A stretch of 64,000 bases of DNA from Capsulimonadaceae bacterium. GTDB lineage: Bacteria > Armatimonadota > Armatimonadia > Armatimonadales > Capsulimonadaceae. A model generated the notes under the pieces. It saw only the letters and a program-made list of their open reading frames with translations, had not been told where the DNA came from and did not search any database. Position numbers and translations under genes: made by a program. Shown one piece after another: positions 7,458-55,647 of the stretch; the stretch's first letter is position 1; every line of letters starts with the position of its first letter. The stretch lies in contig OZ255718.1 of assembly GCA_965277095.1 (NCBI GenBank), positions 3,295,594 to 3,359,593 on the forward strand, written 5' to 3'.

Positions 7458-7626
7458 CGCTTGCGGCAAAAGGCTTCTGGCGATTGTCAGCAGGTTATTC
7501 GTCGTTTGGAGTGGAATTGGCTCTTGCGAGAGTGGAAGGCTTTTCATTCGGTCAAGTAATCGCAGGCTTACGGGGTTGTGGGATGTCGTAGGCATTCACG
7601 TTATCGCTCTCGTTCAGGGGCAAGCC
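7458..7626 (+). other. ORF-less cassette, family A copy 4/21 (variant A2)
   Basis: family A ends, but middle is GGAGTGGAATTGGCTC..GGCTTTTCATTCGGTCAAGT with no TATTAT box. Confidence 0.65.
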
Positions 7627-7726
7627 ATCTAACAATGCGCTGCACCGGACGCCAGTAGCCGCGCCCACGGTTTCGTTATCGCAAGCGGTGTCAGGCTACT
7701 GCCGCAGGTGAGCTATGGCGTTAGGC
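7627..7726 (+). repeat. attC site 18
   Basis: R''=ATCTAAC; R'=GTTAGGC. Confidence 0.9.
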
Positions 7727-7784
7727 CGCTTGCATACTTGCTGACCTGTGGCGAGAACCAGTATAAAAGCCTCCCATCATAATC

Positions 7785-7793
7785 TGGTACAAT
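7785..7793 (+). promoter_or_regulatory. extended -10 (TGgTACAAT) 6 nt upstream of antitoxin ATG; leaderless mRNA predicted
   Basis: TGG 7785-7787, TACAAT 7788-7793, ATG 7800. Confidence 0.4.
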
Positions 7794-7799
7794 GTACCC

Positions 7800-7997
7800 A
7801 TGAGCGTTCAAGAATTAGAAAAAGCTGTTACCCAACTTCCTTCCCCGGACTTGGCCCAGTTTACGGCATGGTTTGAGGAGTATCAAGCCGATCTATGGGA
7901 CAAACAAATTGAGCAGGATGCTTTGTCGGGGCGGCTGGAGGCACTCGCGGAGCAGGCTAATCGGGAGTTTGAGGCGGGGCGTTGTCGGCCACTATGA
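7800..7997 (+). CDS. type II antitoxin, addiction-module-component type (65 aa)
   Basis: small acidic helical protein; ATGA overlap with downstream RelE/ParE-like gene. Confidence 0.65.
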   Translation: MSVQELEKAVTQLPSPDLAQFTAWFEEYQADLWDKQIEQDALSGRLEALAEQANREFEAGRCRPL

Positions 7998-8248
7998 GGC
8001 ACTTTACGACGCCTCAGTTTTGGCAACTTTACAGCACCCTGCCGCGAGAAATCCAGCAACTTGCCGACAAAAACTTTGATTTGCTCAAAGCGGATGCCAG
8101 CCATTCTTCGCTCCGGCTAAAGAAAGTTGGTAAGTATTGGTCGGCACGAGTTGGCGCACATTATCGGGTGCTGGCAACGGAGCGGGCCGAGGGCTTGGTC
8201 TGGTTTTGGATTGGCCCTCATGCGATTTATGATGCTCTGATACGATAG
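7994..8248 (+). CDS. RelE/ParE-superfamily toxin (84 aa)
   Basis: track ORF 7982..8248; ATG 7994 overlaps antitoxin stop; HSSLRLKKVGKYWSARVGAHYRVL..WFWIGPHAIYD is typical of RelE/ParE-like toxins. Confidence 0.7.
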   Translation: MRHFTTPQFWQLYSTLPREIQQLADKNFDLLKADASHSSLRLKKVGKYWSARVGAHYRVLATERAEGLVWFWIGPHAIYDALIR

Positions 8249-8264
8249 GCTTGAGAGGCAATCG

Positions 8265-8366
8265 GCCTAACAATGCGCTGCACCGGACGCCATCAGCCGG
8301 CCTTTGGCTTTGCATTGTCGTAAGGTTTGCCTCGGCTGTTGTCGCCGGTGAGCTAGGTCGTTAGAT
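8265..8366 (+). repeat. attC site 19
   Basis: R''=GCCTAAC; R'=GTTAGAT. Confidence 0.9.
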
Positions 8367-8539
8367 CGCTTGCGGCAAAAAGCTGTCTGCAAACGCCGGA
8401 ACTTTGGCGGCATCGTTCAGAATTGGGCTTTACGTTTTCGTTTCGGCTGTGCTATCATTCAGGAAATTAGTCGGTAGTTTATTGGGTACTCCGGCAGTCG
8501 GGGGCGTTCTCGTTGTCGCTCTCGTCCGATGGGCAAGCC
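8367..8539 (+). promoter_or_regulatory. ORF-less cassette, family A copy 5/21
   Basis: -10 box is TATCAT here; GCCGGAAC/GTTTCGGC pairing needs a G-U. Confidence 0.7.
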
Positions 8540-8641
8540 ATCTAACAATGCGCTGCACCGGACGCCACCAGCCGGCCTTATGCTTTGCGTAGTCGTAGGG
8601 TTTGCCTCGGCTGTTGTCGCCGGTGAGCTATGGAGTTAGAC
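8540..8641 (+). repeat. attC site 20
   Basis: R''=ATCTAAC; R'=GTTAGAC. Confidence 0.9.
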
Positions 8642-8679
8642 CGCTTGTGCCTTGCCGACTCAACCAAAGGAGGATTACA

Positions 8680-8904
8680 GTGAATGGATGGCTAAAACGA
8701 AACCCGGTAGCTGCTTGGAGATGGTTTCATTGGTTAGCTTATTACTTGTTTTGTTTTGTCGTTTGTCTGTCTTTGCTCTTCCTTCAGCATCGCCTTTTTG
8801 GTCATCCGCAACATATGTCTGAGGTAACTTTGGGTTGTGCGGCTGGAACAGTTTTCTTGGCATTATGGAATATGTTGTTCCGCCGTCGCCGAAGAAGTCT
8901 TTAG
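8680..8904 (+). CDS. small membrane protein (74 aa)
   Basis: track ORF 8602..8904 starts in attC; GTG 8680 lies 6 nt after AGGAGG. Confidence 0.55.
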   Translation: MNGWLKRNPVAAWRWFHWLAYYLFCFVVCLSLLFLQHRLFGHPQHMSEVTLGCAAGTVFLALWNMLFRRRRRSL

Positions 8905-8911
8905 CGCAGCG

Positions 8912-9012
8912 GTCTAACAATGCGCTGCACCTGACGCCAGCGGCGCGGTTCTCGTGTGCGTTGTCGGGGGTCAAGTGCGTGCCGCTGTCGCAGGTGAGCT
9001 AGGTCGTTGGGC
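8912..9012 (+). repeat. attC site 21
   Basis: R''=GTCTAAC; R'=GTTGGGC. Confidence 0.9.
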
Positions 9013-9084
9013 CGCTGAATAAGCAGTGGTATTTTCACGAGACGGAAGATAGTATCAGCCGCGCTGAAACAGGCGTAAATCAAG

Positions 9085-53745: not shown

Positions 53746-53764
53746 CGTATTCGGAGCCGTTGCA

Positions 53765-53863
53765 GCCTAACAATGCGCTGCACCCGACGCCACCCGCGCC
53801 ATTGCCGTAGCGTTGTCGGTTGCGGTACTATGCGGGTGTCGCGGTTGAGCTATGTCGTTAGGC
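53765..53863 (+). repeat. attC site 104
   Basis: R''=GCCTAAC; R'=GTTAGGC. Confidence 0.9.
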
Positions 53864-53921
53864 CGCTTCTGGCCTTTTCCTTCCTGTTACGATAGCCTCT
53901 GAATTTGCCGTTGTTTTCTGC

Positions 53922-53927
53922 TACAAT
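53922..53927 (+). promoter_or_regulatory. -10-like TACAAT 5 nt upstream of brnT ATG
   Basis: CTGCTACAATTGGTTATG. Confidence 0.35.
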
Positions 53928-53932
53928 TGGTT

Positions 53933-54244
53933 ATGACAGATGCCTACGAGGGTCAAGGCAGGTTTGAGTGGAATCCCGGTAAAGCCAAAAGCAATATTAG
54001 CAAACATCGCGTCACTTTTGAGGAGGCCATGTCGGCCTTCCGTGATCCGCTTTCGCTGACAACCCCTGATCCAGATCACTCGGAATTGGAAGACCGCTTG
54101 ATTTTGATGGGGCTATCTGACCGCCAACGCCTTCTGGTAGTGATTTATGTGGAGCGCGGCGAAAACTTACGGCTTATCAGCGCACGGGTAGCAGACCCGG
54201 ATGAGAAAAGAGAGTATGAGGAAGAACCTGGCTATGGATTCTAA
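53933..54244 (+). CDS. brnT: BrnT (DUF497) toxin (103 aa)
   Basis: FEWNPGKAKSNISKHRVTFEEAMSAFRDPL..LLVVIYVERGENLRLISAR. Confidence 0.75.
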   Translation: MTDAYEGQGRFEWNPGKAKSNISKHRVTFEEAMSAFRDPLSLTTPDPDHSELEDRLILMGLSDRQRLLVVIYVERGENLRLISARVADPDEKREYEEEPGYGF

Positions 54245-54494
54245 ACCTAAAAATTCTGAACAAGACGGACTTTTGGAAACAGAAGAGCCGATAATGCGGG
54301 CGAATTACAGTTTCAAGGGCGGTCAGCGGGGGCGTTACGCGCATTTGTTCCCGCAGAAACCGCATCTTGTTGTGTTGTCGCCCGATATGGCCGCAGTATT
54401 TCCTGACTCTGACTCGGTGAATGAAGCCCTGCGAACATTAGTCAAGGCTGTGCAGAGAAGTGGGCCACCGCCTCTTGAACGCGAAGCGGCCTAA
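54234..54494 (+). CDS. brnA: BrnA-type antitoxin (86 aa)
   Basis: overlaps brnT end; ..VLSPDMAAVFPDSDSVNEALRTLV..; stop in attC. Confidence 0.7.
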   Translation: MDSKPKNSEQDGLLETEEPIMRANYSFKGGQRGRYAHLFPQKPHLVVLSPDMAAVFPDSDSVNEALRTLVKAVQRSGPPPLEREAA

Positions 54495-54581
54495 CAATGC
54501 GCTGCACCCGACGCCGGTGGTAGGGTTTTCCTGTCTCATATCCGCGCTTGCACCGGCGCAGGTGAGCTTTGGCAGTTGGGC
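54489..54581 (+). repeat. attC site 105 (short subtype)
   Basis: R''=GCCTAAC; R'=GTTGGGC. Confidence 0.9.
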
Positions 54582-54840
54582 CGCACGATGGGGCATGGTT
54601 CTCAAAATAAAGCATCGGTCAAAGTCTGGTTTGAGTCTTTGAGTCAGGCAGAGTGAGAGAGTTGACGTTTTAGCCGTAGGTTTCGGTAGGCTTGCTTGTT
54701 GCGGGGGCGTTCGCTTTGCGGCGCAGTGTTTTTGGCTTCGCTCGTTTGCTTGTTGGGGTGCTTGCCGATTAGCCCTGTCGTTTGGTATCCTGTGCGTCAG
54801 CGGCAGGCTCGCTCTTGTGGCGGAAGCAGTTGCACGTTCG
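54582..54840 (+). other. ORF-less cassette (singleton)
   Basis: only ORF (54696..) runs through attC; contains TTGACG, 19-nt spacer, TAGGCT. Confidence 0.45.
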
Positions 54841-54942
54841 GCCCAACAATGCACTGCACCCGACGCCAGCAGCCTGCGTTTTGCTCTGCATACCCGTTCG
54901 GCTGTGCAGGGCTACTGTCGCGGGTGAGTTTTGGCGTTAGGT
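54841..54942 (+). repeat. attC site 106
   Basis: R''=GCCCAAC (AATGCACTGCACC variant); R'=GTTAGGT. Confidence 0.9.
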
Positions 54943-54987
54943 TGCAGAGCGGAGGGCCATTTGTGGCGTAATGGGAAAGAGGTTTAT

Positions 54988-55356
54988 ATGCCGAACTATT
55001 GGCTTGTTGGCGCTATGTGGGGCGGTTCTGATGACCAAACGGATAAGTTTGTTAGACGCGGCTATTGGTTCCTAGGTTGGCGAGATAATGAGAAGCCGGA
55101 TTTGGCTATCTTGCGCGACCAAATCAAACCCGGAGACAGAATAGCGATTAAGCAGATGTTAGGACAAGGCTCCCCAAACATCAGAGTCAAGGCTATTGGC
55201 ATAGTTAAAGAGATTGATCCTGAAGATAAACGGGTTTATGTAGACTGGCTTGTGCAAAATATATCACGCGATGTTCCAAGCAAAGGATGTTATGGGTCTA
55301 TTCACGGTCCCTACTCCGAACAGGACGAGTGGATTAAAGCTACCTTTTACATCTGA
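54988..55356 (+). CDS. hypothetical protein (122 aa)
   Basis: ATG 54988 after GAAAGAGG; YWLVGAMWGG..IKPGDRIAIK..; loosely like 3480..3980. Confidence 0.6.
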   Translation: MPNYWLVGAMWGGSDDQTDKFVRRGYWFLGWRDNEKPDLAILRDQIKPGDRIAIKQMLGQGSPNIRVKAIGIVKEIDPEDKRVYVDWLVQNISRDVPSKGCYGSIHGPYSEQDEWIKATFYI

Positions 55357-55379
55357 GGCGTAATGCTTGCCAGTCTGCA

Positions 55380-55477
55380 ACCTAACAATGCGCTGCACCT
55401 GACGCCACCGCCGCCGTGTCCTCAGCGTACTCGTTCGGCTGTGCTTGCGGTGTCGCAGGTGAGCTATGGCGTTAGAT
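55380..55477 (+). repeat. attC site 107
   Basis: R''=ACCTAAC; R'=GTTAGAT. Confidence 0.9.
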
Positions 55478-55647
55478 CGCTTGCGGCAAAAGGCTACTGG
55501 CGAAGGGCGGAAGGTATTGGGTCATTGAGAATGGAATAGGCTTCTGCGAGAGTGGAAACTTTTTCATTCGGTCAAGTTGTCGGGGGTTTATGGGGCTACC
55601 GGATGTCGTAGGCATTCACGTTATCGCTCTCGTTTGCAGGGCAAGCC
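55478..55647 (+). other. ORF-less cassette, family A copy 19/21 (variant A2)
   Basis: GAGAATGGAATAGGCTTC..TTTTTCATTCGGTCAAGT middle. Confidence 0.65.

Follow-up and report, generated by a model that had tools for sequence, protein, structure and literature searches.

The window analysed here, a 64,000-nt stretch of a Capsulimonadaceae bacterium genome (contig OZ255718.1, positions 3,295,594 to 3,359,593), carries 21 copies of a short repeated element, family A, which an earlier note on this DNA had described as modular. The 19-mer TCGCTTGCGGCAAAAGGCT matches 21 times in the window, on the + strand only, against an expectation of 0.03, and each window copy lies between an upstream GTTAGAT and a downstream ATCTAAC AATGCGCTGCACC. 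The string TAACAATGCGCTGCACC is the 5' end of an integron attC site and is found 124 times, again only on the + strand. All 124 window sites conform to the consensus RYCTAAC AATGC GCTGCACCnGACGCC...GTCGCnGGTGAGC TATGGC GTTAGRY, and the bottom-strand DNA of three attCs, two of them from family A, folded into the canonical hairpin, in which the R box is followed by an unpaired spacer, a bulged L box and a variable loop. This indicated that the whole window lies inside a cassette array.

The genome (4.01 Mb, 58% G+C) contains two such arrays of about 51% G+C (C1:3275356-3406093 and C1:3734858-3885801; genome coordinates carry the prefix C1), from which 485 cassettes were parsed (about 491 attC sites; 275.6 kb, 6.9% of the genome). 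The integrase gene, coding for IntI (TIGR02249, 442.6 bits for a cut-off of 265), heads the first array at C1:3275440-3276495 and is divergent from it; the window begins about 19 kb into this array. The integrase is adjacent to the first array only, and both arrays end in truncated attC sites. The relatives retrieved in searches with IntI shared at most 61% identity with it and came from many phyla. The same attC type was found in 22 of 24 genomes of the host's family, nearly closed assemblies included, with a maximum of 32 pattern hits, versus 496 here.

Clustering of the cassette bodies gave 64 members for family A, or 13% of the array cassettes, 34 for a second gene-less family, family B, and otherwise small families and 277 singletons. 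Bodies of at most 200 nt were found in 112 cassettes. Family A is a cassette of about 272 nt devoid of open reading frames (ORFs), composed of a body of about 177 nt (TTAGAT plus about 171 nt) and its own attC of about 100 nt. It starts at TTAGAT, right after the G/TT crossover point of the preceding attC, and its R'' box is ATCTAAC. In 440 of the 485 cassettes, including all 64 array copies of family A (TTAGAT versus ATCTAAC), the R'' box is complementary to the first 6 nt of the same cassette. In cassettes generally, the complementarity between the start and the bases before R'' reaches about 12-13 bp and extends the attC R boxes. Thus, the family ends, which the earlier note had regarded as conserved, are indeed kept, but they are partly generic, as this start/end complementarity occurs in all array cassettes. 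An attC, a G/TT boundary, a co-oriented array with IntI, and discrete mobility, the characteristics of integron gene cassettes, were all found for family A. We considered a protein-coding reading, which was ruled out by 1-2-nt indels between copies and by the lack of both 3-base periodicity and a fixed frame. Altogether, family A is probably a paralogous gene-less integron cassette, made mosaic by recombination between its copies, most of which carry a putative promoter.

Identical bodies were found 14 to 302 cassettes apart, in both arrays and always between unrelated neighbors, showing that copies move singly, as cassettes. In line with this, no correlation was found between sequence distance and array distance among the copies (rho = 0.007). 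The genome holds one more copy, the 65th, outside the arrays (C1:307745-308023; locus L098, about 3246-3524, minus strand). This solitary copy is of a hybrid type (see below) and displays 98.4% identity, over body and attC, to window copy 4564-4840. It is inserted exactly at G/TT inside an ORF, with boundaries G/TTAGAT...GGCG/TT, and the ORF part downstream of it codes for a CAP12/Pycsar-type TIR domain (PF10137, 133 bits). Its sequence looks like the product of an integrase-type secondary-site insertion. Family A would therefore be mobilized as a unit by the integron integrase, as far as mobility can be read from sequence. The inserted copy lies between an N-terminal domain and the TIR domain, separating the two, and one frame is open through the cassette and its attC into the TIR part. 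In addition, a decayed A2-like remnant fused to a partial attC (G000:C1:3712070-3712250; locus L099, minus strand) sits in a mini-cluster of three attCs about 23 kb before array 2.

Alignment of all 64 array copies separated 40 A1 copies, 15 A2 copies and 9 hybrids (window copies are designated below by their first position; Table 1). All the motif strings quoted in the earlier note were recovered by exact-string search in the copies that it had named, with the 19-mer of the A2 copies starting at 7457, 43508, 49827 and 55477, one base off the reported figures. As it had stated, four window copies (7452, 43503, 49822 and 55472) have no TGCTATTAT box, and TTTTCATTCGGTCAAGT is present in exactly those four. 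Its copies 2, 3 and 20 are hybrids: TGCTATTATTCGGTCAAGTTGGCG occurs in exactly 3142, 4564 and 55744, which join TGCTATTAT to TTCGGTCAAGTTGGCG. The 5' half of A2 had been described as replaced. The strings GGAGTGGAAT and GAGTGGAAGGC are exact in 7452 and 43503, but 49822 and 55472 contain diverged versions of them, and the A2 5' half still aligns to that of A1 (TTCAGAAT, GGC.TTTGC), so that it represents a divergent allele rather than an unrelated insert. The +1 region exists as two sharply conserved alleles, TTCAGGAAA and TTCGGTCAAG.

The four alternative 3' modules that had been proposed as a minimum all exist, together with a fifth, GCAGTCGTGGGAGGCAGTCGCG. Their association with either 5' type was true of at least two of the quoted modules and of the fifth, and the others were found in A1 only. 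Thus, in the window, GGCTACCGGATGTCGTAGGCATTCACG is carried by one A1 copy (12665) and one A2 copy (55472), and GGCTTTCCAGTAGTGAGGGGCATCCGCG by two A1 copies, with a one-base variant in A2 copy 43503. The fifth module is common to A2 copy 49822 and hybrid 55744. In contrast, the four matches of GGTCATCCGGCAGTCGG and the two of GGCCTTTGCAGGGGTGAGAGGCAGTCGCG are all in A1 copies. A2 appears to be an old, internally diverse allele lineage that lacks the predicted promoter, and the hybrids appear to be A1 × A2 recombinants.

Recombination or gene conversion among dispersed copies, as proposed in the earlier note, was borne out for all 64 array copies by three independent tests, based on the pairwise homoplasy index (PHI), shared tracts and tree incongruence; the simple tree-like divergence that it had set against this was not what the alignment showed. 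Using 124 informative columns and 53 distinct sequences, we obtained a PHI value of 0.68, compared with 1.01±0.02 in 1000 column permutations, none of which was as low (z about -15). The incompatibility of site pairs rose with distance: 43% for sites 1-5 nt apart, 73% for those more than 80 nt apart. Furthermore, 132 pairs of copies that agree at fewer than 85% of the polymorphic sites share an unbroken run of at least 25 such sites, and at least the 40 best-ranked of these pairs were never matched in 1000 permutations (p < 0.001). The shared tracts span 25-84 consecutive polymorphic sites. For instance, A1 copy 12665 does not differ from A2 copy 55472 anywhere in columns 122-172, and none of 1000 column permutations gave a run of that length.

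A maximum-likelihood tree built from columns 25-99 grouped A2 as a clade with a support of 100/100, as expected since A2 is defined on that half. In contrast, in the tree of columns 111-177 A2 monophyly costs 68.3 log-likelihood units (p-AU, from the approximately unbiased test, 0.0006). When copies were written as strings of module types, all four combinations were present, as with EBB/IBB × ADDA/CGG., in which the 5' types E and I are each found with both 3' sets, and recombinant types recurred at three or more separate places (HDBACBB, FABBFFB and DAAABCE, three times each). In hybrid 55744, columns 43-81 are like 2076, columns 87-121 like 3142 and 4564, columns 127-157 like 49822, and the CTATGT end module like genome copy g3370845. 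Tract ends cluster at columns 81-90 and 111-130, which immediately flank the conserved promoter core; an interpretation of these clusters as recombination hot spots was dropped, because conserved blocks alone give that pattern.

The array is extremely repetitive, a situation in which the mosaic might conceivably reflect tree-like divergence with parallel mutation, or assembly or polishing artefacts between paralogous repeats, with no real recombination. This appears extremely unlikely given the distance dependence of the incompatibility (PHI z = -15), the tracts of 25-84 shared polymorphic sites, the rejection of A2 monophyly by the p-AU value, and the recurrence of the same recombinant types. 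Moreover, the hybrid type is reproduced outside the arrays, in a context of unique sequence.

The integrase cuts at R' only and can neither swap segments within a body nor part a body from its attC loop. Nevertheless, the attC loop differs in 39 of 91 pairs of cassettes with bodies at least 97% identical (17/31 in family A, 9/23 in family B and 13/37 in other families). Because IntI cuts only at R', exchanges within the body and of the attC loop imply homologous recombination, gene conversion or template switching. A PHI z of -6.5 reveals mosaicism in family B as well, and together with the array-wide swaps of attC loops this shows that mosaicism is not special to family A: modularity is a property of the repeat-dense array, best seen in its most abundant cassette. 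Through homologous recombination or gene conversion, the 64 dispersed direct copies have exchanged segments, so that 5' types, +1-region types and 3' modules are found in every combination; the same integrase-independent process swaps the attC loops and makes family B mosaic. Copy 18572-18844, to be compared with genome copies C1:3282080 and C1:3291094, carries an attC loop of the family-B type.

We next turn to the block that distinguishes A1 from A2. A1 carries TTGCTT-17-TGcTATTAT, aimed at the next cassette. With both strands searched, TGnTAnnnT was found in 38 of the 40 A1 copies and 8 of the 9 hybrids, but in none of the 15 A2 copies. Over 42 distinct promoter-bearing copies, the entropy of the -10 hexamer TATTAT was 0.06 bits and that of TGn 0.12, versus 0.04 and 0.11 for the cassette termini; values for the -35 hexamer TTGCTT, the 17-nt spacer and the flanks were 0.42, 0.63 and 0.76-0.77 bits, respectively. 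The -10 hexamer and the TG before it have the lowest entropy of all internal elements. This profile is that of a putative extended -10 promoter. A + strand ORF fills at least half of the body in 345 of the 387 other cassettes, and the predicted promoter is co-oriented with these ORFs. Other gene-less families have comparable features: family B keeps an extended -10-like TGGTAAAGT on the + strand in 28 of 34 copies, and two smaller families keep TGGTATGCT or GGGTATAGT at a comparable place. The A1 copies and hybrids (49/64) thus appear to carry an extended -10 promoter of the sigma-70 type that would read through attC into the next cassette, and family A would act as an internal promoter cassette far from the integron promoter Pc. 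A search of A2 for other promoters (sigma-54-like, extracytoplasmic function [ECF]-like, and TTGACC on the minus strand) yielded nothing convincing. A LexA-like CTGT-N8-TCAG overlaps the -10 box. The commonest attC loop type (140 sites) also holds TGGTATGCT, in 69 exact copies (e.g., 6853-6952, 15100-15199 and 20699-20798); this string resembles an extended -10 on the + strand and lies about 45 nt upstream of the following cassette, which raises the possibility of weak promoters within attC sites.

Several observations weigh against a mosaic promoter cassette. The -35 hexamer matches the consensus at 3 of 6 positions only, and a generic sigma-70 scan listed a single copy, because its rule of at least 4/6 matches per hexamer excludes TTGCTT. 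The 15 A2 copies persist and spread without the box, indicating that the promoter is not needed for cassette maintenance. The spacing of the promoter-bearing copies is no more regular than random, and the cassettes downstream of them are not distinctive; thus, the array layout gives no sign of selection for promoter placement. A promoter also leaves unexplained the invariant 24-nt 5' end and the conserved CCGAAACTTTGGC block. Family A was found in none of 40 related genomes, and an exact family A 21-mer gave one chance match in metagenome contigs, inside an unrelated ORF without attC, so that no independent lineage is available for comparison. Finally, the mosaic exchange may have occurred in this chromosome or in earlier hosts of the cassettes.

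Some of these features would also suit a selfish non-coding cassette, multiplied as a short, efficiently recombined unit, with a promoter-like box that is incidental or of slight use and a mosaicism that follows from the number of copies. Such a cassette could account for the maintenance, mobility and diversity of the box-less A2 copies and for the random spacing, and 30 of the 44 attCs with a type 1 loop belong to family A. The same possibility was raised for paralogous non-coding Vibrio cassettes in the part of Boucher et al. 2006 (PMC1382264) that deals with them. However, across the 42 distinct copies the conservation of the -10 box and TG equals that of the recombination termini, whereas adjacent columns vary freely, and a -10-like box at a similar position is retained by each of three other gene-less families. 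Selfishness as the whole explanation is therefore rather unlikely, although it is compatible with the promoter cassette that we favor.

The conserved blocks outside the promoter, namely, the 24-nt 5' end with its palindrome TTGCgGCAA, the CCGAAACTTTGGC block and the two +1-region alleles, could instead belong to a small regulatory RNA or to a protein-binding or structural DNA element, with the modules as alternative functional domains. The + strand is also poor in stop triplets, with an open frame after the TAG of R' in 52 of the 53 distinct copies, versus 24±3.6 in dinucleotide shuffles; on the minus strand open frames are fewer than expected (1 versus 11.6), although no frame is fixed, nor are the copies independent of each other. 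However, Rfam returned no match at the gathering threshold for the whole window, nor at E <= 1 for an A1+A2 tandem. Neither RNAalifold on both strands nor an exhaustive scan of column pairs detected a covarying helix beyond the invariant terminal stem, and a first impression of a covarying hairpin in the 3' module was not upheld by them. Folds of single copies were inconsistent with each other and no terminator was found. Family A thus does not have the features of a structured non-coding RNA family, and we consider a role as RNA or DNA element quite unlikely.

Returning to the promoter cassette, the earlier note had raised the possibility of on and off versions. Alleles with and without a predicted promoter are a fair description at the sequence level, and an on/off reading of A1 and A2 is plausible. 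That gene conversion between A1 and A2 works as a stochastic on/off switch of downstream cassettes, at dozens of positions of an array of about 490 cassettes, is a long shot; if true, it would represent a recombination-driven, population-level expression lottery on top of the shuffling of cassettes by the integrase.

The features of family A call to mind several known systems. Class 1 integrons, as reportedly described by Jové and coworkers in 2010, have the Pc variants PcS and PcW and the hybrids PcH1/PcH2. Like family A, these have alternative -35 and -10 alleles in all combinations, with graded cassette expression in the case of Pc, but Pc is found once per integron, in the integrase gene or the attI platform, and varies by point changes, whereas family A is a mobile multi-copy cassette. 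Bacterial interspersed mosaic elements and REP-type repeats are intergenic palindromic units found across the chromosome. Family A resembles them in being dispersed and non-coding, with alternative modules in differing combinations; however, these elements are neither bounded by attC nor moved by an integron integrase.

Parallels are also found in Vibrio. Two V. vulnificus arrays contain 45 and 34 copies of a non-coding cassette family (Boucher et al., BMC Evol Biol 2006; PMC1382264), for which the part of that paper devoted to it notes no homologues outside vibrios; its paralogues were proposed to undergo gene conversion, and a role as promoter, RNA or selfish element was suggested. Going by that account, both families are non-coding, have tens of copies per integron (64 here) and lack homologues outside their lineage; they have no sequence relationship. 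Gene conversion was put forward there as a homogenizing force, with no test reported in the same part of PMC1382264, while recombination in family A was tested and creates mosaics, some of which add or remove the -10 box. Blanco et al. (Nucleic Acids Research [NAR] 2024; PMC11014356) demonstrated by experiment that gene-less cassettes of Vibrionaceae are mostly sense-strand promoters that can switch on a silent downstream cassette, and they state that two gene-less cassettes of Treponema integrons had earlier been found to hold promoters. As in these promoter cassettes, family A is short, contains no protein-coding gene, and resides in a large sedentary chromosomal integron, with a predicted sense promoter independent of Pc. 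It differs from them in that its activity is deduced from motifs, its host is not a Vibrio, it was not found in 40 relatives, and it alone makes up 13% of the array, where it coexists with recombining promoter-less and hybrid alleles. By its motifs and organization, family A is a putative new and unrelated member, in another lineage, of the known gene-less promoter cassettes.

How cassettes far from Pc are expressed in large chromosomal integrons is a standing question, to which gene-less promoter cassettes are the current answer in Vibrio. What is new here is the formal demonstration that paralogous non-coding cassettes recombine below the level of the cassette, including gain and loss of the promoter box and swaps of attC loops. 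Ordinary homologous recombination, and not the integrase alone, reshapes promoter regions, 3' modules and attC loops. As cassettes are usually treated as indivisible, sub-cassette exchange has consequences for the typing of cassettes, for source tracking based on attC and for modelling how arrays evolve. Reporter tests could draw directly on the natural A1, A2 and hybrid sequences.

Table 1. Family A copies and family B cassettes in the window (positions of the window; copy numbers in brackets are those of the earlier note)
Type	Position	Strand	Features
A1	2076..2341	+	body 2076-2255 plus attC; TGCTATTATTCAGGAAA at 2166
Hybrid (copy 2)	3142..3409	+	A1 -35/-10 with A2-type TTCGGTCAAG
Hybrid (copy 3)	4564..4840	+	whole cassette shares 98.4% identity with the solitary copy at C1:307745-308023
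A2	7452..7720	+	no -10 box; GGAGTGGAAT..GAGTGGAAGGC..TTTTCATTCGGTCAAGT
A1, variant -10 (TGCTATCAT)	8361..8635	+	
A1	12665..12938	+	3' module GGCTACCGGATGTCGTAGGCATTCACG common to A2 copy 55472
A1	13202..13476	+	3' module GGCCTTTGCAGGGGTGAGAGGCAGTCGCG
A1	16486..16760	+	
A1	18572..18844	+	body near-identical to four other copies; attC loop of family-B type
A1	20793..21065	+	columns 146-185 (3' end) identical to A2 copy 43503
A1	33765..34038	+	5' end variant TGGCTTGCCGCAAAAGGCT
A1	38559..38834	+	body and attC identical to genome copy C1:3291094
A1	39901..40177	+	
A1	43231..43502	+	tandem with the following A2 copy (43503)
A2	43503..43773	+	5' segment common with promoter-bearing g3386704; 3' end with A1 copies 20793 and 33765
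A1	44866..45141	+	
A2	49822..50091	+	diverged 5' strings; columns 127-157 identical to hybrid 55744
A1	50623..50897	+	
A2	55472..55743	+	two genome copies in unrelated surroundings have the same body and attC
Hybrid (copy 20)	55744..56016	+	mosaic of at least four donors
A1	59174..59447	+	
Family B	1008, 12939, 18845, 42510, 50092, 59448		gene-less; 34 genome copies

Two gene-less cassettes of 257 nt without a -10 box, at window positions 29210-29466 and 50366-50622, look like distant relatives of family A. They share with it the 5' end TCGCTTGC, the combination GGCTTTGCT...GGCTGTG, and the 3' end CTCGTTCGG.GGGCAA. A further motif, GCTGGGCGAAAGGCT, is shared near the start of many unrelated cassettes (e.g., at window positions 13477, 20239, 37354 and 50898). 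Elsewhere in the genome, the EUB338 target (ACTCCTACGGGGGGCAGC) of the single 16S rRNA gene (G000:C1:899850-901350) contains a mismatch, and the gene is unusual around positions 960-980.

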